Positions 1 to 41,260 of a stretch of 41,777 bases of DNA are shown piece after piece. This DNA is from an uncultured Anaerolineaceae bacterium (GTDB taxonomy: Bacteria > Chloroflexota > Anaerolineae > Anaerolineales > E44-bin32). Under the pieces are notes generated by a model, which did not search any database, was not told where the DNA came from, and worked only from the letters and a program-made list of their open reading frames with translations. The translations under genes were made by a program, and so were the position numbers. Positions within the stretch are counted from its first letter, which is position 1. Each line of letters opens with the position of its first letter. The DNA is taken from NCBI GenBank assembly GCA_964569445.1, contig CAZMVJ010000002.1, positions 1 through 41,777 on the forward strand, in the 5' to 3' direction.

Positions 1-1007
1 TGACGACTCACACCGTCCTGATCGCCACAGGCTCCTCACCTTACCGTCCACCCAACATCCCCTTCGATCTCGAGAGCGTCTACGATTCGGACGAGATCCT
101 GACCATGGCCCGGCTCCCCGAGTCGATGGCCGTCGTCGGCGGAGGCGTCGTCGGCTCGGAGTACGCGTGCATCTTCACCGCCCTGGGTGTCCACGTGACC
201 CTGATCGAGTCGAAACCCCGGCTGCTTCCCTTCGTCGATCGCGAGATCGCCGGCCGGCTGCAATCCCAGCTTGAAAAACTGGGGGTGAGGTTGCGCTTCT
301 CAGAACGGGTGAGGCAGATACAGGCGGAGAACCGCCGAGTGCAGCTGACGCTCGAGAGCGGCGACGTCGTCGAAACCGAGGTAGCGCTGTTCGCCGCCGG
401 GCGAGTGAGCAGTATTGAGGGCCTGGGGTTGGAACCGTTGGGGATCCAGACGGCGGAGCGCGGTCGGGTGGTCGTGAATGAGAAGTTCCAGACCGCCGTG
501 CCCAACGTCTACGCCGCCGGAGACGTGGTCGGCTTCCCCGGGCTGGCTGCCACCTCCATGGAACAGGCGCGTGTGGCGATGGTCCACGCGTTCGACTTGG
601 AGTACAAACAGCGCGTGTCGCCGATCCTCCCCTTCGCCATCTACACCATCCCAGAGATCTCCATGGTCGGCATGAGCGAGGAGGATTGCGCCGAGAAGGG
701 CATCCCGTATCTTGTGGGACGTTCGTACTACGAGCGCAACCCGCGCGGCCTGATTGTCGGCGACGAAACCGGCATGGTGAAGCTGGTGTTCTCGCCTCCC
801 GATAAGAGGCTTCTCGGTGCTCACCTCGTCGGGGAGCAGGCGTCGGAGTTGGTTCACATCGCGGCGCACGTCATGGCCCAGGACGGGACCATCGACGCCT
901 TCATCGACGCGGTCTACAACTACCCTTCCCTGTCCGACTCGTACAAGTATGCGGCGTACGACGGGCTTGCAAACCTGCAGGCATGGCGCAACCGCGGGAC
1001 GGGATAA
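1..1007 (+). CDS. sthA: Soluble pyridine nucleotide transhydrogenase-like flavoprotein (class I pyridine nucleotide-disulfide oxidoreductase). The 5' end is cut by the window edge.
   Basis: Frame 3 is open from nt 3. The translation TTHTVLIATGSSPYRPPNIPFD...VVGGGVVGSEYACIF...AAGDVVGFPGLA...YTIPEISMVG...NYPSLSDSYKYAA is collinear with the SthA/UdhA NAD-binding and dimerisation domains. Stop at 1005-1007. Confidence 0.8.
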   Translation, partial: TTHTVLIATGSSPYRPPNIPFDLESVYDSDEILTMARLPESMAVVGGGVVGSEYACIFTALGVHVTLIESKPRLLPFVDREIAGRLQSQLEKLGVRLRFSERVRQIQAENRRVQLTLESGDVVETEVALFAAGRVSSIEGLGLEPLGIQTAERGRVVVNEKFQTAVPNVYAAGDVVGFPGLAATSMEQARVAMVHAFDLEYKQRVSPILPFAIYTIPEISMVGMSEEDCAEKGIPYLVGRSYYERNPRGLIVGDETGMVKLVFSPPDKRLLGAHLVGEQASELVHIAAHVMAQDGTIDAFIDAVYNYPSLSDSYKYAAYDGLANLQAWRNRGTG

Positions 1008-1010
1008 GAG

Positions 1011-1384
1011 AAGGCATCCCGGCCTTCGATCTGCAAGCGGTCTCGCATCGTCTTGGTGCTGTCCTACAAAGCCCTTCAGCCCTCGGCCCTCTGTCGAAGT
1101 TGCCCTTCGCTGTCGGGCTGGGCCGGGCCGCCCGCGCCATCGTATTGCAGAACCTCGTCCTTTCGATCTCAGCCGTAGGCTTGCTGATCCTGGCGGCGCT
1201 GACAGGGGTGATAGGGATCGGCGCCGTCGTCGCCCACGAGAGCGTAACCCTCGTTGTGGTCTTCAACGCCCTGCGGCTGCTTGGCTATCGGGCCCAGCGA
1301 CATGAAAGGCGGCGGCGTACCCCGGCGTCGAATAGGTACTGTCTGACCTTTCTGACCTTGGAGGTTCTTCAGTGGACCTGTTGA
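1011..1384 (+). pseudogene. Orphan 3' remnant of a heavy-metal P1B-type ATPase (only the last transmembrane helices).
   Basis: ORF 983..1384 reads ...LSKLPFAVGLGRAARAIVLQNLVLSISAVGLLILAALTGVIGIGAVVAHESVTLVVVFNALRLL. This is the conserved C-terminal TM pair of CadA/ZntA/CopA-type pumps. No actuator, DKTGT or nucleotide-binding part precedes it, because sthA ends at 1007. Confidence 0.5.
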
Positions 1385-1707
1385 CTGCCTTCGGCGCGCT
1401 GGCCGTTACTGTCATGCTGGTGTCATACGCGCTCGAGTCCCGATCCATAACCTGGTTCTTTGTATTCGCACTCGGGTGCGCCGCCTCCTCGCTGTACGGC
1501 GCCCTGGCCGGCACGTGGCCTTTTGCGGTGGTGGAGGGTGTCTGGGTTGTCGTTGCCTTGAGACGCTGGTCCGCGCAACGCCGGGCGAAGTTCGCGGCCC
1601 AGCCCTCCGCTCGCCTCTCGGGTCCCTCGGCTAATGTGGCTTGGCCTTCGATCAGGCAAGATACTTTAAGTCTGTTGCCTGGCCCTAGAAGACGGTCAAG
1701 GGTCTAG
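1372..1707 (+). CDS. Small hydrophobic membrane protein (2-3 TM helices), function unknown.
   Basis: GTG-initiated ORF with the helices LLTAFGALAVTVMLVSYAL, WFFVFALGCAASSLYGAL and PFAVVEGVWVVVAL. The 3' tail runs into intergenic repeat copy A, so the true C-terminus is uncertain. Confidence 0.45.
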   Translation: MDLLTAFGALAVTVMLVSYALESRSITWFFVFALGCAASSLYGALAGTWPFAVVEGVWVVVALRRWSAQRRAKFAAQPSARLSGPSANVAWPSIRQDTLSLLPGPRRRSRV

Positions 1708-1840
1708 GTCCGGCAGGCAGCCCAGAATCAGTAGCCCCTTACACGGAATCCGGTGAAAGGCGAGCAGGGGTCCTAATCGCCGCTGCCGAGTCCTGCAAGA
1801 CCCTCATGCTTGGCTTCGTGTCCCACCGTCGCCTCCTCAA
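1674..1840 (+). repeat. Intergenic repeat / candidate structured RNA family, copy A.
   Basis: gttgcctggccctagaagacggtcaagggtctaggtccggcaggcagcccagaatcag...acggaatccggtgaaaggcgagca...tcccaccgtcgcc is nearly identical over about 95 nt to 25627-25725. It shares the distal tcccaccgtcgcc block with 25824-25836. Possible closing helices are GACGGU(1691-1696)/ACCGUC(1825-1830) and GGGUCU(1700-1705)/AGACCC(1798-1803). Confidence 0.7.
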
Positions 1841-1844
1841 TAGC

Positions 1845-1905
1845 AGCCGTCAGCTTCTAGCTGTCAGCCGTCAGCGGCCCAAAGCAATTCAGATGGCTGA
1901 CGGCT
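1845..1905. other. Duplicated stem arm giving two mutually exclusive hairpins.
   Basis: agccgtcagc occurs at 1845-1854 and 1866-1875. Its perfect complement gctgacggct lies at 1896-1905, giving a 10-bp stem with either a 20-nt or a 41-nt loop. Confidence 0.5.
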
Positions 1906-2133
1906 TCCCCAAAGGCGGGTGAAGGTCTCCCGAAAGGCGGGAGGCCTTTATACGCCTTCTACGATTCAGTACAACGCGGGCGGGAGAACGAAGACGGTCA
2001 AGCGTGTTGGGCGCCCATTTCGGCCCAACCCGCGCCGCAGCGCGGCGGCCGCTCAGCCTCGTTTGGGGTCTTGTCTTGCGACCTGCGTCTGCCCACCGGC
2101 TTGCGCCGGCTCGAGCCCGAGGCGCGCATCCAC

Positions 2134-3267
2134 TCAAGGAGCCTGCCACACCCGCAAGAGCGCCACGATGTCCTGGATCTCCTCCGGCTTGAGGCGGCCG
2201 TCCCACGCCGGCATGCCTGCCTGGGGCCGTCCGCCCAGGATAAAGGCCAGCAGCGCCTCGTCGGAGAGGGATTGAACAATGACGTTTTCGGGCAGGGAAG
2301 GTCCGACACCCCCGGCGCCCTGCAGCCCGTGGCACACCTCGCAGTTGGCGGTGAAGAGCTGCTGCCCCTGTTGAGGGTCGCCGGCGGGCGCGGCTAGCGC
2401 GGCGGTGATCGCCTCGCCTGCACCATCGAGGTCACCGGCGGCGATTCGGCCCAGCGCCTCATTCAACATCTCAACCTGAGCCGCTGCGGCGACGCGCAGC
2501 GACGCCCGTAGATGGAATTCAGCGTCGAGGGCATCCTTGCGTTCGAGGGCGAACGTTGCCGCTTGGAGGTGCTCGCTGGCCGGCATGACCGCCGCTACCT
2601 GCTCCCCGCGGCGCCACGCCGCAATCAGCGCCACCAGGTCATCGATCTGCTCCGGAGAGAGGACCGTCCCCCATGTCGGCATGCCCTTGGCCGGCCGGCC
2701 GAAAGCGATGGTGTCGCGGAACCACTTGTCGTCGAACCGACCCAGCCGCGCCGGATCATTGAGGGCTGGCGCCGGACCGCCGCGACCTTCCGGCCCGTGA
2801 CACGCAAAGCACGTCGAGGCAAAGATCGTCGCGCCGCGCGAAGGGTCGGCGGCAGTTCGAGGCGCCTCGGCCACGGACGCCGTGGCCTGCCACCCGCGGA
2901 TGAACGCGACCAAATCGCGGATGTCCTCGTCCGTAAGGGGTCCGCCGTTGGCCTGACCCCAGGAAGGCATCGCCGTGCCGGGCACGCCGGATCGAATCAG
3001 AGACCACACCAGACCGTCCGTGACGCCGTCGAGGAAGGCCTTGTCGTTCAGCGCCGGGGCGGACACACCCTCCCCGTTGCGGCCGTGGCAGGCCACACAG
3101 TTCTCTTGAAACAGCCCCGCGCCACGCTCGGCCCGGTCGGCGTTGAGCTGCTGCGCGGCAGCGACCATGCGAGCGGGTTCGAACATCCAATAGACCCCGA
3201 ACGCCAGGACCACGGCCAAGGTCAGGCCGAACCCGATGCGCATGTGGCGATCGTAGCTCTCGACCAT
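2134..3267 (-). CDS. Membrane-anchored triheme c-type cytochrome (three class-I cytochrome c modules).
   Basis: N-terminal TM helix. Three CxxCH motifs (CVACH, CFACH, CEVCH), each followed by a GMPxW-type Met ligand region. The internal triplication is visible in the translation. It is the last gene of the bc cluster. Confidence 0.85.
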   Translation of the reverse strand: MVESYDRHMRIGFGLTLAVVLAFGVYWMFEPARMVAAAQQLNADRAERGAGLFQENCVACHGRNGEGVSAPALNDKAFLDGVTDGLVWSLIRSGVPGTAMPSWGQANGGPLTDEDIRDLVAFIRGWQATASVAEAPRTAADPSRGATIFASTCFACHGPEGRGGPAPALNDPARLGRFDDKWFRDTIAFGRPAKGMPTWGTVLSPEQIDDLVALIAAWRRGEQVAAVMPASEHLQAATFALERKDALDAEFHLRASLRVAAAAQVEMLNEALGRIAAGDLDGAGEAITAALAAPAGDPQQGQQLFTANCEVCHGLQGAGGVGPSLPENVIVQSLSDEALLAFILGGRPQAGMPAWDGRLKPEEIQDIVALLRVWQAP

Positions 3268-3270
3268 CGC

Positions 3271-3789
3271 TTAGACCTTCGCCACCTGGGACGGGTCGAA
3301 GCCCGCCCGCGTGATCAGCCGGCTGGTGTCGACCCAGACCTCGCCCTCGACAATCTCGACGGGAAAGGTGTCCAGAGGTCGTGGGGCCGGGCCGGCGAGC
3401 ACCTCGCCACGCGTGTTGAAGATCGAGCCGTGACAGGGACAGTTGAAGCGCGCTTCGGCTTTCACCCACGGCACGGTGCACCCAAGGTGGGTGCAGCGAT
3501 GCGACATCGCCAGCAGGCCTTCAGGAAGGCGAGAGACGTAGAACTGGCCCGCCGCCACGTGGCTCATGCTGCCGGTGAGAAATTCCTCGACCCGGCCCGC
3601 GCGCACCCGGCCCCCAAAGGCGCCGGGGTGCGGGATGGGGCGAAGGAACTGCCAGAGGGCGACGGCGACCTGGCCGACAAGAAGGGCCATTGCCAGCGAC
3701 CACAAACCCGCCAGAAACTGGCGCCGAGGGAGCGGCGACACCGATGGGAGATTCGAGGGACCGGGGTCCGAGGAGGTCGGGATTGTCAT
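3271..3789 (-). CDS. Rieske [2Fe-2S] subunit of a cytochrome bc-type complex.
   Basis: Twin-arginine-like RRQFLAG plus a TM anchor. Rieske boxes CTHLGC and CPCHGS. Confidence 0.9.
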   Translation of the reverse strand: MTIPTSSDPGPSNLPSVSPLPRRQFLAGLWSLAMALLVGQVAVALWQFLRPIPHPGAFGGRVRAGRVEEFLTGSMSHVAAGQFYVSRLPEGLLAMSHRCTHLGCTVPWVKAEARFNCPCHGSIFNTRGEVLAGPAPRPLDTFPVEIVEGEVWVDTSRLITRAGFDPSQVAKV

Positions 3790-3799
3790 GTCCGCTCCG

Positions 3800-4576
3800 T
3801 CACAAATTGTCGAGGGGGTTATAGCCGCCCGGCATGTCCCAGGGCCAGTACATCCTGAACCCGGGGCCGCGGAAGAAGAAACCGCTCACGGTCAGGACGA
3901 AGGCCGAGACGAGCATGACGGTGAACAGGACCAGGAGCAGCTCACGGCGCGAGGCCGGGATCGCCGAGCGCCGCGCCGCGGCTTGGACGACGATCACCGG
4001 CGCGGCGACGACGAGGGCCAGGGCTCCCGCCGGAATGAGCCATTGGGCGACGACATCCGGCGCGATGCCGCGCAGGGCTTCGCGCACGTTGAACCAGGTG
4101 TCCAGAATGATCAAGGCCGGTAGGGCGATCGCCGTGTAGATCGCCGAGTACGCGACGAGGCGCCGGCCGCGCCGTGAAGTGAACCAGATACCTGCGGAGT
4201 TGCGGTCCCGATCAAGGTAGGGCAACGCCACGAGGAACGCCACCAGGAGCGTGGGGATCACGACGCCGGCCAGCGTAGGATGCATGTGCTCAAGCATCTC
4301 TTGCAGGCCAAGGAAGTACCATGGCGCCTTGGCCGGGTTGGTCGTCACCGCGGGATTGGCCAATTCCTCGAGGGGGGCATTGCGCGCCACAGACAGCAAG
4401 AGCACCGCCAGGATCGAGCCCACCCCAAGCAGCAGCTCGAGCAGCGCCAGGACGGGGAAAGAGAAAACCGTGCCCTCGGGACCCTTGTCGGCCATGCGAG
4501 TCTCGGTGGGGACGACGGCCATCAGCCCGTAGGTCTTCTTCGGGTCCTCGGGGAAGATCGGGGGGTCACTCGCCAT
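3800..4576 (-). CDS. Cytochrome b C-terminal part / b6f subunit-IV-like membrane protein.
   Basis: The start was chosen at [14 protein letters not shown], with the SD GGGGAGGA 6 nt upstream. It overlaps the cytochrome b stop by 11 nt. It is polytopic, with a PEWYFL-like [17 protein letters not shown] motif. Confidence 0.8.
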
Positions 4577-5324
4577 CGAGGTCCTCCCCTGTCTCGCCGA
4601 CAGCCAAGCCGCCGTCCTTGCGGACGCGCCACAGGTGCAGGCTGATGAGGAGCGTGAGCGCCAGCGGGACGAGCATGATGTGCAGCGCATAGAACCGTGT
4701 GAGCGCCTCTTGGCCTACGTCGGCCCCCCCGACCAAGACGGTGCGCACCGTCGGTCCGAGCACCGGCGCGTAGCCGGCGATGTTGGTCCCGACCGTGATG
4801 GCCCAGAAGGACAATTGATCCCAGGGAAGCAGATAGCCGGTGAAACTGGCGAACAACGTCAGGAGCAGCAGGACAACGCCGACGACCCAGTTGAACTCGC
4901 GCGGGGGCTTGTAGGCGCCGGTGTAGAAGACGCGTGCCATATGCAGCGCCACCGCCACGACCATCAGGTGGGCGCTCCATCGATGCATGTTGCGCATGAG
5001 CTGCCCGAAGGGGATCCGAGTTTGCAGATCGACGATATCGGTGTAGGCGCGCTCGACGGAGGGGACGTAGTAGAACATGAGCAGCGTCCCCGTGAGGACG
5101 AGGATACCGAACAGGATGACCCCGATGACGCCGAGCCCGAAGGAATACGTCACGCGCAGGCTCTTCCGATTGACCTTCACGGGGTGGAGGTGGAAGAAAA
5201 GGTTCGTCGTCATCACCAGGGAGCGGTCGAGCGGGTTGTTGGGCCACCCGTGTCGGAAGAACGAGCGCCACACCGCGCTGGCGGTCAGCCGCTGGATGAT
5301 GGGGAGGGAGCGGAAGTTGCTCAT
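4566..5324 (-). CDS. Cytochrome b (b6-type N-terminal four-helix part).
   Basis: MSNFRSLP... start. Conserved heme-ligand His regions [19 protein letters not shown] and [11 protein letters not shown]. The WDQLSFWA motif is present. Confidence 0.9.
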
Positions 5325-5465
5325 CGTCTCGGCACCTTGGGACTCAGGGGGAAAGCCTGGGACCGCCACGGGGCGTGGAAGGACCGCTCGGCCCGCGTTG
5401 CGGGGCCGGAACAACGCGAGGGCGCGATCGCCCGGAGGCCTGCCTGCCCCAACGGCTGATGGGGT

Positions 5466-7421
5466 TCAGACTTCGCCATAGGCAAGAATTTCCGAGAACG
5501 AGAACCTCTCCATGGTGATCGCTCCGGTGGGGCAACGTACGGCACACAACCCACAGCGCGTGCACAAGGCCTCATCCTTGATGATCGCCCCGCCATTCTG
5601 GCTGCCGGTGCCGAGGGCCACCCCCGCCCGCTTGTCGCCTTCGAGCTCCGCAACGTGCACGAGTTTGAGGCAGTTCCAAGGACACACGTCGACGCAGGCG
5701 CCGCACAAGATGCACTTGGTGGAGTCGAAGATCGTGTTGACCGCGCAATCCAGGCACCGCTCGGACTGGCGCCACGCTTGGTCCGGCTCATAGCCGGTTT
5801 CGACCTCGGCGATGCCGATCCGGCGATCCAAGGGAGTGGTTGGGACTTTCTCCCGGGCCAACCTCAAGTACCGAGGCGAGGAGACCCCGCGCTGCGGCAA
5901 GGCGGATCGGTGCATTTGCCCGGAGGGCTTAACACGCAAGGGCCGGCCCTGCAATTGGGCCTCGATCGAGCGCGCCGCCTTCTGTCCGTCGCGCACGGCT
6001 TCGATCAGGATGCGAGGCCCGTACACCACGTCGCCGCCAGCCCAGACGCCCGTCGCCGTCGTCGCCATGGTTTCGGGGTCCACGGCGATCAGGCCGCGTG
6101 CGGTAGCTTGAATGTCCTCCGCGCCTTCCAGGAACGCGAGATCGGCGTTTTGGCCGATGGCCAGGATGACCGAATCACAGGGCATGGGTTCTTCGGTGCC
6201 GGGGATGAAGCTCGGGTTGAATCGTCCCGAGGCGTCGAAGACCGACTTCACCCGGATGGTCTCGAGCGCGGCCACCTTCCCGGCTTGGCCAAGGATGCGG
6301 TTCGGGCCGCGACGGACGTGGATCTGGATGCCCTCCTCCTGGGCCTCGTCGATCTCGAGCCGGGAGGCGGGGAGTTCGTGCCAATCCTCGAGGGCGACCA
6401 TATGAACTTCGGCCGCGCCCAGTCGAATGGCCGTTCGGGCGACGTCGAAGGCCGAGTGCAAGATCTCGCCACCCCGCACCTCGGCGTCGTCCAGGTCGCG
6501 CAGCGTTTCGCGCGTTTGGTCAACCAAGCGGCGGAGGTCCCCCGGCGAGAGTCGGTGCGTATCCGCCTGCGCCAGTTGGGCGCGCAGCGCGGTGCGGGCC
6601 GCATCTACCGCGACGTTGCCGCCGCCGACGACGATCACCTTCGTGCCGAGATCGACGCGGTAGCCGCGATTGGCGTTCAGCAGGAAGTCCACCGCCTTGA
6701 ACACACCATCGAGGTCCACGCCCTCGATGCGAAGGTCGCGGCCCTTTCGCAAGCCGGCGCCGAGGAAGACGGCGTCATAGTCCCGCCGGAGCTGGGCAAA
6801 GCTGACATCCTCGCCGACGGCCACGCCCAGTCGGAGCTCCACGCCCAGGTCGAGGATGGCCCGGATCTCCTCGTCCAGGAGTTCTCGTCCAAGCCGGTAG
6901 AGCGGAACGCCCTGGAGGAGCATACCCCCGGGTGCGTCGGACGCCTCGAACACGGTGACCTGGTGGCCGAGCAGCGCCAGATCATGGGCGGCGCCAAGGC
7001 CGGCAGGGCCGGAGCCGACAACGGCGACACGGCCCAGGCGGCGCCCCGGCGTGGCCGCCAGTCGTTTGAGCGCCGAGCGATCGTGCTGGGTTGCGGAGGA
7101 TCCGGGGGGACTGTCGGCCCCGACCGGCCGCGCAGACTCCACGCCGTGGCGTTCGGTGACGAATCGCTTCAGCGGGCGGATGGCAATCGGCGCGTCGAGG
7201 AAGCCGCGGCGGCAGGCCTCCTCGCAGGGTGCGGCGCAGATGCGGCCGCAGATCGAGGCGAAGGGGTTGGACTCCCGCGCCAGGCGGTAGGCCAGCTCGG
7301 TGTCGCCGGCGGCAATGGCCGTGACATAGCCGCGCGCGTCGGTTCGGACGGGACAGGCCGCTTGGCACCGAATGGCGCGCTGATAGTAGGCTAGGTCAGG
7401 AGCCTCGACGCGGTAGGTCAT
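5466..7421 (-). CDS. GltD/SudA-like NAD(P)H-dependent Fe-S flavoprotein with a C-terminal 2x[4Fe-4S] ferredoxin domain.
   Basis: N-terminal Cys cluster CQAACPV...ICGRICAAPCEEAC. Dinucleotide fold VAVVGSGPAGLGAAHDL. Second fold VIVVGGGNVAVD. C-terminal CILCGACVDVCP and CTRCGLCAVRCP. Confidence 0.8.
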   Translation of the reverse strand: MTYRVEAPDLAYYQRAIRCQAACPVRTDARGYVTAIAAGDTELAYRLARESNPFASICGRICAAPCEEACRRGFLDAPIAIRPLKRFVTERHGVESARPVGADSPPGSSATQHDRSALKRLAATPGRRLGRVAVVGSGPAGLGAAHDLALLGHQVTVFEASDAPGGMLLQGVPLYRLGRELLDEEIRAILDLGVELRLGVAVGEDVSFAQLRRDYDAVFLGAGLRKGRDLRIEGVDLDGVFKAVDFLLNANRGYRVDLGTKVIVVGGGNVAVDAARTALRAQLAQADTHRLSPGDLRRLVDQTRETLRDLDDAEVRGGEILHSAFDVARTAIRLGAAEVHMVALEDWHELPASRLEIDEAQEEGIQIHVRRGPNRILGQAGKVAALETIRVKSVFDASGRFNPSFIPGTEEPMPCDSVILAIGQNADLAFLEGAEDIQATARGLIAVDPETMATTATGVWAGGDVVYGPRILIEAVRDGQKAARSIEAQLQGRPLRVKPSGQMHRSALPQRGVSSPRYLRLAREKVPTTPLDRRIGIAEVETGYEPDQAWRQSERCLDCAVNTIFDSTKCILCGACVDVCPWNCLKLVHVAELEGDKRAGVALGTGSQNGGAIIKDEALCTRCGLCAVRCPTGAITMERFSFSEILAYGEV

Positions 7422-7446
7422 GCCGCCGAGTTCGGGAGCGAGGGGG

Positions 7447-7854
7447 TCACTTGACCATGATCTCTTGGAACATGCCGGCCTCGTAGTGACCGGGCACGTA
7501 GCAAGAGAACTCCAGCCCCGATCCCACGGCGCTCTCGATGAATGTGAATTCCATCGTCTTCGTGGCGCCGGGGGGCAAATCGTCTTGCTCGATCCTCATC
7601 AGCGCCAGCTCGTCCATCTCCTCCATCGCCATGGCACCCGTGCTTCTGGGTGTGATCATGACCTCGTGGGGCACGGCCCCGGCGTTGGTGACGACGAAAC
7701 GATAGGGAACGCCGGCCTCGAAGGTGGTGAGAGAGGACTCGATCTTGAACTCGGTAAGGGCGATCTGAACCTCCGCCGGCCCCGAGGGCTTGGGCGCGCA
7801 GGCAGCAAGGAGGAGACCCGCAACAACCAGGAGAAGAACCTTCGTTCTGAGCAT
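7447..7854 (-). CDS. Cupredoxin-like (type-1 copper) lipoprotein.
   Basis: Internal start MLRTKVLLL with the SD AAGGAGG 7 nt upstream. Lipobox LLAAC. Candidate copper ligands are HEV...CYVPGHYEAGM (Cys-His-Met spacing). Confidence 0.8.
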   Translation of the reverse strand: MLRTKVLLLVVAGLLLAACAPKPSGPAEVQIALTEFKIESSLTTFEAGVPYRFVVTNAGAVPHEVMITPRSTGAMAMEEMDELALMRIEQDDLPPGATKTMEFTFIESAVGSGLEFSCYVPGHYEAGMFQEIMVK

Positions 7855-8157
7855 TGCTATGACCTCCTTGAACAGGGCTTCGGAAGGAACGGGCATGGGC
7901 GCGCCGAGAGGGCAACTCGGGCTGCGGGCGCCGAGGTGGCTGGAGGTTCTCCCCAGGTCTCCCGCAAGGTCTTCGTGATATGGAAGGGCCCCCGAAGGCG
8001 GCGCTCAGGTGCGGGGCTCCTGTTGTGGGCACGATCCTCACTCTAAGTTTGCGGGGATGGCGGCTCTAGTGCCACTTGTCACGCAAGGGGGTGAAATTTG
8101 TCGTATTGCCCGGGAGGTCCGGATTGCGGCTGGCTAGATCGCAATCGGGAGACCCCT

Positions 8158-8547
8158 TTACTTGGGCGTCCCTGTTGGCAAGAGCGGACGGTGCGTCCTG
8201 GTGACGAGCATCGCCTGCGTGCCCCCCTGCTCCATGGGTCCACCCATGTACCTGTGGGGTTCAGCATCAAAGGCCTTCTTGCACCCCGGGCTGCAGAAGT
8301 AGTATGTCTTGCCCATATGCTCTGACTTCAACGCTGCCGTTCTTTCGTCCATGTCCATTGCACAAACTGGGTCCTTGGCAATGATCGTTCTCTCTTCACG
8401 TTGCGAGTCCGGCCGGGTTTCCTCCCATCCATGCTGCCCCTCCACCGCTGAGCCGCGGGAGGAACGGCCAGGAAGGGAGAATCGCTCCAACGACAGCGGG
8501 CAGGACGGTTGATGGTTCCGTGCTTCGCATATCGTCGGCCGAGGCAA
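8158..8547 (-). CDS. YHS/TRASH-domain metal-binding protein (N-terminus uncertain).
   Basis: DPVCAMDMDE...GKTYYFCSPGCKKAFDAEP is a YHS domain. The first about 60 codons of the ORF look non-native. An alternative GTG lies at 8457. Confidence 0.6.
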   Translation of the reverse strand: MPRPTICEARNHQPSCPLSLERFSLPGRSSRGSAVEGQHGWEETRPDSQREERTIIAKDPVCAMDMDERTAALKSEHMGKTYYFCSPGCKKAFDAEPHRYMGGPMEQGGTQAMLVTRTHRPLLPTGTPK

Positions 8548-8781
8548 GCTATCCCATCACAGGGATCGAACACGCGCCACCAGGAAGGCCTCCGTTAACA
8601 CGTGAGACAGTGTGGTTCTGCGGTTCGCTGCGACCTGGGCCTTGAGCGCGGGGCCGGCAGACTAAGCGCCACGGTGACAAAGGGGTCTGGGCAGTTCGCC
8701 TCTGCTTCCTGATTCCACTTTTCACCAATGCCCGGGAGGTGGTTCTCGGGACCCGATGTCGCGCGATCTCTTGCACCTCGC

Positions 8782-8814
8782 TTTCATCCCAGCTTCATCT
8801 TTCTCCGATATAGT
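8782..8814 (+). promoter_or_regulatory. Direct-repeat box (TTTCATC-N4-CTTCATC, 11-bp register) plus a -10-like TATAGT upstream of the response-regulator gene.
   Basis: Half-sites at 8782-8788 and 8793-8799. TATAGT at 8809-8814 lies 9 nt after the second half-site. The same architecture recurs at 10917 and 11459. Confidence 0.55.
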
Positions 8815-8837
8815 AGTTTCGCCCCACGGGGACCCAT

Positions 8838-9521
8838 ATGCGCGTCCTGGTTGTCGAAGATGAGCGCAAGATATCCGCCTATCTCAAGCGAGGCCTTGAG
8901 GAGCAGGGGTACGCCGTTGACGCCGTCTTCACCGGGGCGGAAGCGCTTGATTGGGCTCAAGCCGCGGAGTACGACATCATCCTGCTGGATATCCTCCTAC
9001 CCGAAATGGATGGCCTCTCCGCCTGTCGCGAGCTGCGCCGACGCGGGGTCCGCTCGCCGATCCTGATGCTGACAGCCCGCGATGCGGTGGACGACCGGGT
9101 GGCCGGCCTGGACGCCGGCGCGGATGACTACCTGGTCAAGCCCTTCGCCATGAGGGAGTTACTCGCGCGCCTACGTGCCCTCACGCGCCGTTCCCCCGAA
9201 ACAGCCCGGACTTCCGTATGGCAGGTCGCTGACCTGACGCTCAACACCATGACTCGCCGTGTCCGGCGCGGCAAGAAGCCAGTGGAACTGACCGCCAAAG
9301 AGTATGCCGTTCTGGAGTGCTTGATGCGCGAGCCGGATCGCGTCCTCACCCGCACCATGATCGCCGAGCACGTCTGGAACTATGACGTGGTCAACCAGTC
9401 CAACGTCGTCGACGTCTACGTTCGGAACTTGCGGCGCAAGATCGACGACCCCTCTGATGTGAAACTCATCCACACGATTCGTGGCGCGGGCTACCGCCTT
9501 TCGGCCGAAGATGCGGATTAG
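8838..9521 (+). CDS. OmpR-family response regulator (CusR/CopR-like).
   Basis: Receiver domain MRVLVVEDE...DIILLDILLPEMDG...LMLTARD. Winged-helix domain LTAKEYAVLECLM...VVDVYVRNLRRKID...IRGAGYRL. Confidence 0.9.
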   Translation: MRVLVVEDERKISAYLKRGLEEQGYAVDAVFTGAEALDWAQAAEYDIILLDILLPEMDGLSACRELRRRGVRSPILMLTARDAVDDRVAGLDAGADDYLVKPFAMRELLARLRALTRRSPETARTSVWQVADLTLNTMTRRVRRGKKPVELTAKEYAVLECLMREPDRVLTRTMIAEHVWNYDVVNQSNVVDVYVRNLRRKIDDPSDVKLIHTIRGAGYRLSAEDAD

Positions 9522-26772: not shown

Positions 26773-27342
26773 CTAACACGCCAAGTCAGGCCCTCCGCGA
26801 AGGTCATTCAACCCTCGGATAAGGTAGTCGATGTCCGGCCGATCGCCCGGATCATGGCTCCGGTAGGCGAACCGCAGGATCCCTCTCCCGTCGACAATGA
26901 AATCCCCCCCGAGCTGGAGGCTGTCTCCCTGAATGCCGCGCCACGGTCGGCCCGCCAGCATGAGCCGGGCATAGGTCAGGATCGTGCGAGGGCTCCAGGA
27001 ACGAAAGAGCGAACGATCGACGCCACACTCCCGGTATGCCCTTCGTTCAGGATCAAGCCAGAGCGAAAACGGTGCAGCCGTTTCGCGAAGCCACTGCGCA
27101 GCCAATAACGGCGGCCCAAAGGACACCATCACAACACGGGCGCCCAGCGTGCGGAGCGTCGCTGCGTGGCGGCACAACTGTGCCACATGCTCCCGGCAGG
27201 GCAGTCAACCGAGGTGTCGCAGGAAGACGAGCAGCGCGGGGCCATCTTTCCACGCCTCCCTCAGATTCACGGCCCCACCTTCCTCCGTAACGAGCGTCGC
27301 ATCAGGCGCAACATGACCCGGTATCAACGTGGCGTGGGTCAT
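26773..27342 (-). CDS. Prx-like2 (AhpC/TSA_2) thioredoxin-fold protein with an in-frame UGA at 27205-27207. Candidate selenoprotein with a U-x-x-C redox centre.
   Basis: ORFs 27205..27435 and 26773..27186 share one frame and are separated by TGA plus 6 sense codons. The joined sequence reads ...ALLVFLRHLG-U-LPC-REHVAQL...LQLGGDFIVDGRG.... Start at MTHATLIP (27342). Confidence 0.7.
27166..27190 (-). promoter_or_regulatory. SECIS-like hairpin downstream of the UGA at 27205-27207.
   Basis: The mRNA forms GUGGCAC-AGUU-GUGCCGC (plus coordinates 27169-27186), 7 bp including one G-U pair. The apical loop starts 26 nt after the UGA and contains G and U. Confidence 0.55.
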
Positions 27343-30255: not shown

Positions 30256-32190
30256 TCACGCCACCTTGCGCAGGTAATCCCGAATCATGAGCGCCGCCGT
30301 GGCGCCCTCCCCTGCCGCCGAGGCTGCCTGCTTGGTGGATCCAGCGCGGACGTCCCCCACGGCGAACAGTCCTGGCAGAGAGCTCATCAGGCGAGCATCG
30401 GTGATGACGAACCCCATCGGATCGAGCTCGGCCCTGCCTCGCGCCAGGTCGTTGTTCGGCGAAAGGCCGATAAAGACAAAGACACCGTCGTAGTGCCACT
30501 CCTTGGTCTTCCCCGTCGCGCGGTCTTCCACGACGACCGCCTCCAGCCGGTTGCGGCCTTTGAAGGCCTTGACCGCATGATTGACGAACACCGACATCTC
30601 CGGCCTCTTGGCGACCTGCTCCTGCAGGAAGGCGCTCGCCTGGACGGTCGGGCCGAACTCGACGATGTCCACCTTGCGGGCGAACTTGGTAAGCATGAGG
30701 CCTTCCTGGAAGCCGCTGTTGCCTCCGCCGATCACGAGGACTTCTTTGCCTTTGTAGAAGGCGCCGTCGCACGTCGCACAGAAGTGGATATTCAGCCCCA
30801 CGAGATCATCCTCCCCGGGGACTCCCAGCTTGCGATAGCGAGCTCCGGTGGCAAGCAACGCAACCCTGGTCTGGAACAGGTCGCCCTTCCCGGTCGTCAC
30901 GCACAGGTACGGGCCGTCCGGGGAGATGTCGGCGACCTGCTGCGTTTGAAGGATCTCCACGCCGAAGCGACGGGCCTGGTGCGCCAGCCGCTCACCGAAC
31001 TCCACGCCGCCGACCCCTTCGTCGAATCCTGGGAAGTTGTCGATCCGCTGCGTGGCCCCCGCCTGGCCGCCCAGCCCTGCCTTCTCGATGACCAGGGCGT
31101 CGAGCCCTTCGCGCGCCAGGTACAAGGCGGCCGTCAAGCCCGCCGGTCCGGCGCCGATGACGACCGCGTCATAGAAACTCCGCTGAGCCTTCGTCTGCAG
31201 GCCGAGCTTCTCGGCCAGCTGGGCATTGCTTGGCTCGACCAGGATGTCGCCATCGGGAAAAACGATGGTCGGAATGCTCCGCATGCCGCGGTTGATCGCC
31301 TCCACGCGTGCCATCGCCTCGGGGTCCTGTTCGATGTCGATGTTCGTGTAGGATACGCGTTGCTCCCCGAGGAACCGCTTGGCGCGCTTGCAGTCCGGGC
31401 ACCAGGTCGTGCTATAGACGATGATCTCCTTTGGGGCCATGCCGCTCTGCTCGGTCATCCTCCCGCGCTCCTGCGAATCCGCCAAGCGGATGATGGAACC
31501 GCTGGCGAAAGGATTCCCGACTTCGATGCCGAGATCTCGATAGACCTCGTGGGGAATGCCGATGTCCGCCAGGTATATCTCTCCTACATGGGCGGCTGCC
31601 TGCGGAGCCCGCAGGCCTGTCTTCGGAAGCGCCAGGGTCAGCGTGGCGGTGGCGTGGACGCAAGGCTTCGACGGGATGCCGGTCGTCGCATCCAGGCCGG
31701 AGGGCAGGTCGAGGGCGAGGACGGGGCAACCTTGGCTGTTCGCCCATTCGATCCAGCGCGCCGCCCTCGGGCGCGGCCTCCCGCGGAAACCGTATCCGAA
31801 GATGACATCGATCACCATGTCGGGCCTTCCAGATCCGGGGCCGCCCTTCGGGCGCACGGCAAGGCCAAGCCGCCTCAGGATCCGCCACTGTCGCTTGGGG
31901 ACGGCCTTCAAGGCAGCTTCCGAGCCGGTCAACACCACCTGAACCCGGGCGCCCCAGGCATAGAGGTTGCGCGCCGCCACCATCCCGCCGCCTCCGTTGT
32001 TTCCGGTTCCGCACAGGACCACGATCTCCCGCCCCTCGACGGAACCCCCCGACATCTCTCTCGCCAGGGTGGCCAGGTTCCGGCCAGCGAGCTCCATCAT
32101 CTGGATCAGTCCAATCCCATAACCTTGGATTGCACGCCGATCGACCTGCGCCATCTGAGCCGCCGTCACTGCCGGAATAGGAGCGGTCAT
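30256..32190 (-). CDS. Three-domain fusion: YjeF_N NAD(P)HX epimerase + glutaredoxin/NrdH-like domain + thioredoxin reductase.
   Basis: aa 1-240: VVLCGTGNNGGGG and DVIFGYGF (YjeF_N). About aa 255-335: IIVYSTTWCPDCKRAKRFL (CPxC Trx fold). About aa 340-644: VVIGAGPAGLTAALY, redox CATCDG, VIGGGNSGFQEG, GLFAVGD (TrxB). Confidence 0.85.
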   Translation of the reverse strand: MTAPIPAVTAAQMAQVDRRAIQGYGIGLIQMMELAGRNLATLAREMSGGSVEGREIVVLCGTGNNGGGGMVAARNLYAWGARVQVVLTGSEAALKAVPKRQWRILRRLGLAVRPKGGPGSGRPDMVIDVIFGYGFRGRPRPRAARWIEWANSQGCPVLALDLPSGLDATTGIPSKPCVHATATLTLALPKTGLRAPQAAAHVGEIYLADIGIPHEVYRDLGIEVGNPFASGSIIRLADSQERGRMTEQSGMAPKEIIVYSTTWCPDCKRAKRFLGEQRVSYTNIDIEQDPEAMARVEAINRGMRSIPTIVFPDGDILVEPSNAQLAEKLGLQTKAQRSFYDAVVIGAGPAGLTAALYLAREGLDALVIEKAGLGGQAGATQRIDNFPGFDEGVGGVEFGERLAHQARRFGVEILQTQQVADISPDGPYLCVTTGKGDLFQTRVALLATGARYRKLGVPGEDDLVGLNIHFCATCDGAFYKGKEVLVIGGGNSGFQEGLMLTKFARKVDIVEFGPTVQASAFLQEQVAKRPEMSVFVNHAVKAFKGRNRLEAVVVEDRATGKTKEWHYDGVFVFIGLSPNNDLARGRAELDPMGFVITDARLMSSLPGLFAVGDVRAGSTKQAASAAGEGATAALMIRDYLRKVA

Positions 32191-39910: not shown

Positions 39911-40120
39911 TCATTGCTCTTCCGTCCCGCCCATGGACCAGCCGACCGCCCCATAGCCGCAGGCGGGCAGGCAGTCGCCGCAGCCGTTGCAGCGCGTCGT
40001 CTCAATCCACGCTGGTCCGTCCGGATCGACCTTCGTGACGGCCCGAGTCACGCAAGCAAGGCTCGCCTCGCATGGCTCGCACATTTGGCAGCTGTCCCAC
40101 TCCGCAGAAGCGCGCAACAT
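39911..40120 (-). CDS. Small 2x[4Fe-4S]-ferredoxin-like protein.
   Basis: CQMCEPCEASLAC and CNGCGDCLPAC motifs. Start set at MLRASAEW, because the longer ORF start at 40258 lies inside an inverted repeat. Confidence 0.55.
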   Translation of the reverse strand: MLRASAEWDSCQMCEPCEASLACVTRAVTKVDPDGPAWIETTRCNGCGDCLPACGYGAVGWSMGGTEEQ

Positions 40121-40147
40121 ACCCCACCCGGTGCAGCCTGCCAACCT

Positions 40148-40259
40148 AGTGTCCCGTTCCGGAAGCAACTTGATTGTGTCTTTCCGTGGTGCTAAGGGGC
40201 GGAGCCTTTCGTGTGGACCGCTCGACGCCTTTGTCAACTTATCTCCGGAACGGGACACT
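40148..40259. repeat. Perfect 16-bp inverted repeat with an 80-nt spacer in the dsrE-like/ferredoxin-like intergenic region.
   Basis: AGTGTCCCGTTCCGGA at 40148-40163 and TCCGGAACGGGACACT at 40244-40259. Confidence 0.8.
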
Positions 40260-40262
40260 GGG

Positions 40263-40625
40263 TTAGAAGACCAGGACCTGGTCCGCCTCGAGAGTCCACT
40301 CGGCCAGCAAGTCCATGCTTCCGGTCCTTACGCCTTCGACAAACCGCTCAGGCTCGAGCCCGCGAGCCTCTTGACAAGTCCCTCAAGTCGCTACTTCCCC
40401 ACGCTGGGCGACGGACTTCAGCATCCGCTCGATGTTGTAGTAGCCCGTTGGTGTCTTCTGCCCGGCGATGGCGCAGTTGACCGCATCGGCCATGAGGAAG
40501 ACTCGTACCTTCGCCGACCTCTTGATCAGGGCCAGAGCGAGGCGAAGGGCGTTGTAGGGACGCTCACTCCCATAGGGGGCATCATTGATGACCAGGAGAA
40601 ACTGCTTGCTTGCATGTTCGTTCAT
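40263..40625 (-). CDS. DsrE-like protein with an in-frame UGA at 40383-40385. Candidate selenoprotein (U-G-T-C in place of C-G-T-C).
   Basis: The ORF track stops at ...VAQRGEVAT. Reading through gives U-GTCQEARGLEPERFVEGVRTGSMDLLAEWTLEADQVLVF and a TAA at 40263-40265. This restores the full-length DsrE fold and its active-site motif. Confidence 0.7.
40350..40369 (-). promoter_or_regulatory. SECIS-like hairpin downstream of the UGA at 40383-40385.
   Basis: The mRNA forms AGGCUCG-CGGGCU-CGAGCCU (7 bp). The apical loop starts 20 nt after the UGA and is G-rich. Confidence 0.55.
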
Positions 40626-40972
40626 CGTCTGTTTTCCCTTCCTAAGGCCCGTGCCAGGGCTGCGCCAGCTTCCAGATGCTCGACCAAGACTTCTCTCATC
40701 AGGTCACACGCCTTGACGATCTTCGGGCTGGCCAGGCGGTAGTACACGTTCAGACCCTCGCGCCGCGTGGTGACGATGCCCTTCTGTCTCATCAACGTCA
40801 GGTGCTGAGAAAGGTTGGGTTGGCTGATATCCAAGGCCTCGGCCAGATCGGTCACGGACATCTCGCCTTCCCGAAGGCGCTCAATCGCCTCGAGCCGCTT
40901 CGGGTGAGCGAGCGTCTGACAGATGCTGGCATGCAGGGCATATAGGTTCCGATCGGCCATGCCACACTCCAT
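40622..40972 (-). CDS. ArsR/SmtB-family transcriptional regulator carrying two Cys residues in BigR/SqrR-like positions.
   Basis: LAHPKRLEAIERLREGEMSVTDLAEALDISQPNLSQHLTLMRQKGIV wHTH domain. Cys in HASICQ and in KIVKACD. The stop overlaps the dsrE-like start (ATGA). An alternative start at 40960 has the SD GGAG. Confidence 0.85.
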   Translation of the reverse strand: MECGMADRNLYALHASICQTLAHPKRLEAIERLREGEMSVTDLAEALDISQPNLSQHLTLMRQKGIVTTRREGLNVYYRLASPKIVKACDLMREVLVEHLEAGAALARALGRENRR

Positions 40973-41260
40973 GCCTATATTAGGATTATCGCATATTGTA
41001 ATACTCTCCGCCTCCATGGTCAAGCGCCTGTTCTCAACGCCGTTGCCGCCCTGGCATGCTCTCGTGTCTATGGCCATGTACCGAATCCCCCGTTCTTGCG
41101 TCGACCAGGGCCTCCTCGTCGTGCTCCAGACACCGCACCCAAACGGGCTTCGCAATCCCGGGGAAGTCACACCGGATGTTTCTTCCGGGCCGAGGAGCTC
41201 TTGTAGGAGTGACGGTTCCACCGTAGGATTGCGAACGATCGTCAGTCATGAATTATGTCC

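Follow-up and report, generated by a model that had tools for sequence, protein, structure and literature searches.

We describe a gene on the minus strand at 40263..40625 of a 41,777-nucleotide stretch of contig CAZMVJ010000002.1, from an uncultured Anaerolineaceae bacterium (assembly GCA_964569445.1); this whole stretch is called the window below. The gene is very probably a genuine recoded one, in which an in-frame UGA at codon 81 would be decoded as selenocysteine (Sec) to give a YchN-type protein of 120 residues in the DsrE/DsrF family. A first-pass annotation of the same DNA had proposed a DsrE-family selenoprotein gene miscalled as a truncated reading frame, a proposal that is supported by homology, by conservation of the TGA, by selection on the sequence that follows it and by a downstream hairpin.

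An in-frame UGA within a complete DsrE domain

The minus-strand open reading frame (ORF) 40625..40383 encodes 80 amino acids ending in ...KSVAQRGEVAT and then reaches a TGA at 40385-40383. Past this codon the same frame continues unbroken, encoding GTCQEARGLEPERFVEGVRTGSMDLLAEWTLEADQVLVF, and stops at a TAA at 40265-40263. Read through, the gene comprises 120 codons and the TAA, from an ATG at 40625-40623 via the proposed Sec codon 81 (40383..40385, minus strand), which would supply the first residue of a U-G-T-C motif at the column where homologues carry Cys and where the TGA itself is conserved. The extension after the UGA (40263..40382, minus strand) consists of 39 sense codons and the TAA; peptides predicted within it are GLEPER, FVEGVR and TGSMDLLAEWTLEADQVLVF, and the peptide spanning Sec would be GEVATUGTCQEAR. 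When checked on the sequence, all the coordinates and sequences that the first-pass annotation had given for the ORF, the TGA, the 39-codon continuation and the hairpin were exact.

By itself, a frame left open past a stop carries little weight, because the DNA is 64% GC and a crude scan of the whole window found 215 TGA-bridged open frames, nearly all of them noise, so that homology and comparative data have to carry the case. One alternative is that the TGA marks a pseudogene, a nonsense allele or an assembly error, so that an 80-residue fragment or nothing is made and the downstream frame is a remnant. The commonness of chance-open frames in high-GC DNA speaks for it, as does the annotation of the 80-residue protein by gene callers and public databases.

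The domain content of the two possible products differs. The read-through product, with U entered as C, matched the Pfam DsrE profile (PF02635) over its entire length (1-116 of 116) with 78.5 bits, against a gathering cut-off of 22.7, and the truncated 80-residue ORF matched positions 1-72 only, with 48.7 bits. The 39-residue extension alone aligned to profile positions 79-116 (E=0.0017), so that its similarity to DsrE C-termini is present in the Pfam match as well as in the C-termini of Cys-containing homologues. The only close solved structure was Escherichia coli YchN (1JX7; E=5e-25, residues 8-120 versus 3-117), and a profile comparison with the same structure gave E=1.8e-33; U-G-T-C aligns to the C-K-T-C of YchN.

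The structural model used here is an AlphaFold2 model of a natural, 88%-identical Cys form (P0001) and not of the window protein itself. It had a predicted local distance difference test score (pLDDT) of 93.6, and its top Foldseek matches were YchN, DsrE, TusD and DsrF, with template modelling (TM) scores of 0.76-0.90 (YchN 0.90 at 1.4 A, DsrE and TusD ~0.8), which are proteins of the alpha/beta DsrE fold. In this model the residue equivalent to Sec lies at the end of a beta-strand, where a short helix holding the second Cys begins. A stop at codon 80 would remove the part of the fold that the extension encodes, namely its last two strands and two helices; that an 80-residue fragment would lack these elements argues against a pseudogene.

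In alignments of the family profile with solved structures, the Sec column coincides with Cys78 of Allochromatium vinosum DsrE (2HY5_A) and with Cys78 of E. coli TusD (2D1P_A, a 12-residue tag being allowed for). In DsrE and TusD, Cys78 is the persulfide-carrying catalytic residue. The window protein is a YchN-type DsrE-family member and not a sulfur-relay subunit, as YchN is its sole close structure and the NCBIfam TusD, TusC and TusB models match far under their cut-offs. Assignment as a TusD/DsrE relay subunit was accordingly rejected (TIGR03012, 31.7 versus 89.25 bits; NF001237, 26.3 versus 92), and its partner genes were not seen nearby: the neighbours, which encode an ArsR-type regulator, a ferredoxin-like protein and SHOCT-domain proteins, included no second DsrE-family gene and no TusB/TusC or DsrF/DsrH partner. 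The DsrE-family identity first assigned to this gene was right and can be refined to YchN-type.

Conservation of the UGA across homologues

The homologues retrieved from 5.8 billion proteins fell into two populations. The first consisted of full-length proteins of 115-127 residues that aligned with 100% of the read-through query at identities of up to 88%; the second comprised many 80-residue entries, 85-100% identical, which ended exactly where the window ORF ends. The UGA column was Cys in 19 of 20 aligned full-length homologues. In a larger alignment of 72 sequences, made up of the window protein (U entered as C) and 71 full-length homologues, Cys made up at least 90% of the Sec column and the second Cys did not vary. 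The C-G-x-C motif that had been expected at the UGA therefore holds, and the alignment with Cys-type DsrE proteins also matches the extension to their C-termini.

At the DNA level, seven loci behind the 80-residue entries all had a TGA at codon 81, followed by the conserved 39-codon frame and a true stop. A genome scan using one genome per GTDB species yielded 80 loci as the best species-level matches, and codons at the Sec position were then typed by alignment over 88 loci in all: 69 carried TGA, 16 TGC and three TGT. Within the best 80 species-representative matches the TGA form accounted for 61. TGA forms were mostly from Chloroflexota (Anaerolineales, Caldilineales, Villigracilis, Herpetosiphon and others), and the Cys forms found in the genome scan came from Acidobacteriota, Nitrospirota, Betaproteobacteria, Bacteroidales and Actinomycetes. 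Chloroflexi bacterium RBG_19FT_COMBO_62_14, which is the best relative with a name, has the TGA form at 77% identity, and best matches of this kind likewise place the contig in Chloroflexota. This genome carries two TGA-form DsrE paralogues on separate scaffolds (L009 and L029; MGOM01000141.1 and MGOM01000123.1), as does CAVPYC01 (L064 and L065).

Since the TGA recurs in 69 independent loci, from unrelated samples and many species, a sequencing error or a private nonsense allele is excluded. The extension itself bears what reads as the signature of translation under purifying selection. Against six orthologues (L004, L006, L009, L011, L013 and L017), its 39 codons gave ratios of nonsynonymous to synonymous substitution (dN/dS) of 0.10-0.31, with synonymous sites near saturation in the more distant pairs, and ungapped nucleotide identity dropped to 0.2-0.4 directly past the final stop. 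In close pairs dS was lower past the UGA than ahead of it (e.g. 0.08 versus 0.33), which fits an extra constraint at the RNA level. Purifying selection with saturated synonymous change is not what a remnant frame would display, and the compensatory substitutions in the hairpin described below point the same way. We regard a pseudogene or error as effectively refuted and give it next to no credence.

A different possibility is that UGA is a sense codon throughout this organism, as in genetic codes 4 or 25, and that no special recoding element is involved. In its favor, some gene callers rendered the TGA of homologues of a second in-frame-TGA gene on the contig (see below) as W. However, of 20 domain-supported genes on the contig, 13 terminate with TGA where the protein is expected to end and have no internal TGA, the in-frame cases aside TGA is the commonest true terminator on the contig, and four orthologues (L004, L006, L009 and L017) terminate the DsrE gene itself with TGA. 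UGA is thus a stop except in the present context. The homologous residue is Cys and not Trp or Gly, and the GC content of 64% likewise speaks against a reassigned code. Of the explanations considered here this is the least credible, and we take it to be refuted.

A covarying hairpin downstream of the UGA

The predicted apical hairpin resembling a bacterial selenocysteine insertion sequence (bSECIS) lies at 40350..40369 on the minus strand and reads AGGCUCG-CGGGCU-CGAGCCU from 40369 to 40350, with arms at 40369-40363 and 40356-40350 and the loop CGGGCU at 40362-40357. The gap between the UGA and the stem is 13 nt, so that the stem begins 14-15 nt and the loop 20-21 nt past the UGA. The program bSECISearch looks for a stem-loop just 3' of the UGA, with a G in the loop and the loop ~16-37 nt from the UGA; the window hairpin falls within this range and its loop contains an invariant GG.

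We aligned 66 distinct Sec-form sequences without gaps from -3 to +54 nt around the UGA. The conserved core was a helix of 6 bp (40368-40363 with 40356-40351 in the window; alignment columns 21-26 with 33-38) that was 96% paired, and the loop residues G28 and G29 were invariant. Pairing was maintained through substitutions on both arms: the pair 24-35 was CG in 37 sequences, UA in 24, UG in three and AU in one; the pair 22-37 was GC in 55, GU in six, CG in two and UG in one; and the pair 21-38 was GC in 46, AU in six and UA in one. None of 500 column shuffles came up to the real alignment in pairing or in covariation score, a shift of the register by 1-3 columns reduced pairing from 81% to at most 45%, and RNAalifold independently yielded the same core. 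In one case a synonymous change of an Ala codon (GCU to GCC) co-varies with a nonsynonymous Glu-to-Gly change on the opposite arm; here the RNA hairpin constrains the protein sequence.

Upkeep of the hairpin tracks the UGA. In the genome scan, 19 Cys forms retained on average 2.3 of 5 core pairs compared with 4.96 of 5 in Sec forms, and the fold energies were -5.7 and -11.8 kcal/mol, respectively. Two further cases fit this pattern. In L089 (a Logan ERR13950653 contig, gene at 602-985), which is 88% identical to the window protein, the Sec codon is replaced by TGC with the hairpin fully intact, as a fossil SECIS; in the more distant TGC form L090/L091 the hairpin has decayed to 3 of 5 core pairs. 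We read both as natural Sec-to-Cys conversions, that of L089 very recent and that of L090/L091 older. The SECIS-type hairpin that the first-pass annotation had placed downstream of the UGA is thus borne out by covariation and by its absence from most Cys forms.

Evidence for and against selenocysteine decoding

Several results weigh against Sec decoding at this gene. The fold of the hairpin is not significant in single sequences (z = -1.4 and +0.27), so that its reality rests on the comparative evidence. An extended lower stem that includes the UGA, predicted from the window sequence, was only 50% paired across the family and was discarded as not conserved. Rfam returned no SECIS family for the whole window at gathering thresholds, nor for the UGA regions of either in-frame-TGA gene at E up to 10; this null result is uninformative and expected, as the bacterial SECIS models of Rfam are gene-specific. 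Finally, no recognisable selA, selB, selC or selD and no tRNA gene was found in the 41.8-kb window.

A second in-frame-TGA gene on the same contig gives an independent hint that the organism decodes Sec. Among the 215 TGA-bridged frames it was the only other one to survive inspection: a probable selenoprotein gene at 27342-26773 (minus strand) encoding a SelL-related redox protein of the AhpC-TSA fold, with its TGA at 27207-27205 in a motif U-L-P-C. Gene callers split it into ORFs of 76 and 137 residues. Only with read-through does it match Pfam AhpC-TSA at 1-122 of 124 and NCBIfam NF040769 at 159.9 bits (cut-off 120; profile positions 2-170 of 173). A 7-bp hairpin with an AGUU loop (27169-27186, minus strand) starts 18 nt past its UGA. 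Full-length homologues have C at the U column in six cases and W in four, and most database homologues are C-terminal fragments restarting past the TGA. The four entries with W exactly at the Sec column (P0133, P0134, P0136 and P0138) probably arose where TGA in short contigs was translated with table 4, by which selenoproteins may be misannotated unnoticed.

If the UGA is recoded, as is very probable, there is still the question of which amino acid is inserted. A SelC*-type tRNA(Cys), whose anticodon is UCA, might insert cysteine or another standard amino acid, or Cys might enter via the Sec pathway at low selenium. Such a tRNA occurs in nature (PMC5389517), the homologous residue at the UGA column is Cys, and the assignment of Sec to residue 81 rests on inference and not on direct identification. 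Yet SelC* has been reported from Firmicutes, Thermodesulfobacteria, Nitrospirae and Proteobacteria and not from Chloroflexi, in which a true tRNA(Sec) is reported (PMC5389517) and for which selenoproteins are listed (PMC1794560). Moreover, a costly UGA and its hairpin have been kept across 69 loci although a single A-to-C change gives Cys, as in L089, which argues that the product differs from Cys. Insertion of a standard amino acid is, in our estimate, highly improbable, and Sec remains by far the preferred assignment.

Genomic neighborhood

Neighborhoods were counted over 64 Sec-form loci. Immediately upstream of the DsrE gene lies a gene for an ArsR/SmtB-family winged-helix regulator (40622..40960, minus strand; Pfam HTH_5 and HTH_20) of 112 residues from MADRNLYAL, a start that we infer from orthologues of 105-112 residues. 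Its TGA stop overlaps the ATG of the DsrE gene (ATGA), and the two genes are therefore probably co-transcribed and translationally coupled. An ArsR-type homologue was found at the same place in 25 of the 64 loci. The closest solved structures to the regulator were BigR, Rv0081, HlyU and SqrR, with BigR the best. About 35 nt upstream of the ArsR start is a candidate operon promoter (40995..41023, minus strand) of the sigma-70-like form TTGACC-17-TACAAT, matching 10 of 12 consensus positions; a consensus scan, which is not evidence of function, found three such sites against 0.7 expected.

Downstream of the DsrE gene, a small 4Fe-4S ferredoxin-like gene with weak Pfam Fer4 matches (39911..40144, minus strand) probably starts at an internal ATG of the listed ORF 39911-40258, as its orthologues have ~77 residues; a homologue follows the DsrE gene in 12 of the 64 loci. 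Next come two SHOCT-domain genes that overlap by 4 nt (ORFs at 39749-39513 and 39516-39100, minus strand; Pfam SHOCT assigned to orthologues), a pair that just 4 of the 64 loci share, all from the closest relatives. The order ArsR-DsrE-ferredoxin-SHOCT is shared by RBG_19FT_COMBO_62_14. The first SHOCT gene has a Cys/Met/His-rich N-terminus (MCCMMMHAMDH) and the second encodes a Gly/Met-rich membrane protein (GPGMMGPGMTGGWWG), features that suggest soft-metal binding. On related contigs the neighborhoods include CsoR-like repressors, MerA-like reductases, a Cu-type P-type ATPase, YHS proteins and cation-efflux genes.

Separating the ferredoxin-like gene from the DsrE stop is a spacer of 127 nt (40140-40266, minus strand) that contains a long, near-perfect hairpin, with 16-nt arms AGTGTCCCGTTCCGGA at 40244-40259 and 40148-40163 lying 80 nt apart and a fold energy of -56.3 kcal/mol (z = -5.9). 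Among the fetched loci it is present in L008 only. Orthologous spacers are only ~30 nt, which suggests that the hairpin is a palindromic element inserted here or a structure for processing or termination. L008 is a 10-kb Logan contig that matches the right end of the window, with identical ArsR and DsrE genes. Upstream of the ArsR gene, its positions 1-9300 encode a UbiA prenyltransferase, a MerR-type regulator and a heme biosynthesis cluster with GluTR, PBG deaminase, HEM4, ALAD, a radical SAM protein and a chlorite-dismutase-like HemQ.

Elsewhere in the window, directly upstream of the second probable selenoprotein gene, the segment 27432-29445 (minus strand) encodes a CsoR/RicR-like metal repressor and the mercury(II) reductase MerA (TIGR02053, 544 bits), which has an HMA domain at its N-terminus and ends in CCAG. 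A fusion of YjeF_N, glutaredoxin and pyridine-nucleotide-disulfide oxidoreductase lies at 30256-32190.

Proposed mechanism and role

We propose that an arsR-dsrE(U)-ferredoxin-SHOCT transcript is translated and that, by analogy with the standard bacterial SECIS mechanism, the hairpin past UGA-81, with its 6-7 bp stem and G-rich loop, would recruit SelB carrying Sec-tRNA(Sec), such that Sec is inserted at UGA-81 in place of termination. The product would be a complete alpha/beta DsrE-fold domain, in which Sec-81 would occupy the strand-to-helix junction, at the site of Cys78 of TusD/DsrE, and Cys-84 would complete the U-x-x-C motif. Chemically, the selenol would most likely serve as a nucleophile accepting sulfane sulfur or another soft electrophile, and Cys-84 may then resolve the Sec-81 adduct via a selenenyl-sulfide. 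Expression would be governed by the ArsR-type regulator as a stress sensor, with the U-x-x-C center handling sulfane sulfur or soft metals.

ArsR-type control and the neighboring metal-resistance genes suggest a possible role in reactive-sulfur or soft-metal stress. Two points tell against any firm assignment of this kind. DsrE-like selenoproteins are called uncharacterised in function in the literature. In addition, the idea that the regulator is a persulfide sensor of the BigR/SqrR type is speculative and was not adopted, the Cys of the regulator not being aligned with the sensing Cys of BigR. We place little confidence in this chemistry and physiology.

A wider proposal can be put forward tentatively, and we think it rather unlikely: that the YchN-type DsrE proteins of Chloroflexota are predominantly selenoproteins (61 of 80), near-universally misannotated at 80 residues, and serve as effectors of an ArsR-controlled stress module in which the selenolate, Cys-84 and the clade-specific Cys-51 capture Hg, Cu or reactive sulfur and selenium species. 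If this were true, the long-uncharacterised YchN family would for the first time become approachable in terms of function.

Significance

The gene is best described as a real, currently misannotated selenoprotein gene in an already catalogued family and not as a new kind of system. Its description corrects a systematic error: the window gene, at least 60 named Chloroflexota counterparts and many metagenome entries are deposited as 80-residue fragments, the Sec codon being taken for a stop by gene callers, and we found no NCBIfam model that captures this DsrE clade at present. It also marks the organism of the contig as a probable Sec user with at least two selenoproteins. The 66 distinct sequences provide a family-specific SECIS alignment with covariation, and the loci together form an evolutionary series from the Sec form, via a Cys form whose fossil SECIS is still intact, to a Cys form in which the hairpin has decayed. 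What is added to the published record is the breadth of the family in Chloroflexota, its systematically truncated annotation and the conserved upstream ArsR-type regulator. Selection for Sec at the counterpart of Cys78 of TusD/DsrE also points to the leading Cys of the CxxC motif of YchN as a catalytic nucleophile, a testable clue to the role of the YchN family.

Comparison with known systems

DsrE-like proteins with a UxxC motif have been a recognized bacterial selenoprotein family since the analysis of the Sargasso Sea by Zhang and Gladyshev in 2005 (PMC1088965). One was described in Desulfovibrio vulgaris (PMC1794560), 'DsrE 1' and 'DsrE 2' selenoproteins were found in the Global Ocean Sampling (GOS) data (PMC2398784), and the family appears in reviews up to 2026 (PMC9312934, PMC13188914) with WP_014524487.1 as a representative (PMC13188914). 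The first-pass annotation had counted DsrE-like proteins among the reported bacterial selenoprotein families, and the literature agrees (PMC1088965, PMC1794560, PMC2398784, PMC13188914). Like the published examples, the clade described here combines PF02635, a UxxC motif that begins with Sec, a SECIS hairpin right downstream and coexisting Cys-type homologues. The published examples, which we compared by description, come from Deltaproteobacteria and marine metagenomes, whereas the present clade, with its associated ArsR-type regulator, is found mainly in Chloroflexota of soil, groundwater and sludge.

With YchN (1JX7), the window protein shares ~43% identity from end to end and a C-x-T-C motif in the same place. 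The YchN structure was reportedly solved in 2002. Unlike the window clade, YchN has Cys in place of Sec and Thr in place of the nearly invariant Cys-51, and our literature search found no paper tying YchN to selenocysteine. TusD of E. coli TusBCD and DsrE of A. vinosum DsrEFH share the fold, with the proposed Sec-81 at the position of their Cys78, but these two have a single Cys (C-V-A-A), whereas the window protein is of the CxxC type (U-x-x-C).

SaoD of the SAO system is a further DsrE-family protein, with an invariant CxxC and one more invariant Cys, and its relatives outside the SAO system adjoin metal-handling genes; SaoD homologues are stated never to be selenoproteins (Haft 2022 preprint, 10.1101/2022.07.06.499078). 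The likeness to SaoD is by description, and the SAO genes are not present here.

The putative recoding element, in turn, resembles the SECIS of E. coli fdhF in having an apical hairpin at a fixed short distance 3' of the UGA, within the coding sequence and with a conserved loop G. Many members of the family have a GGUC loop closed by A-U, which we take to match the fdhF SECIS. It is the upper hairpin alone that is conserved. The two are likened by form, SelB binding being putative here; in contrast to the fdhF element, the sequence of the present hairpin is particular to the DsrE gene family.

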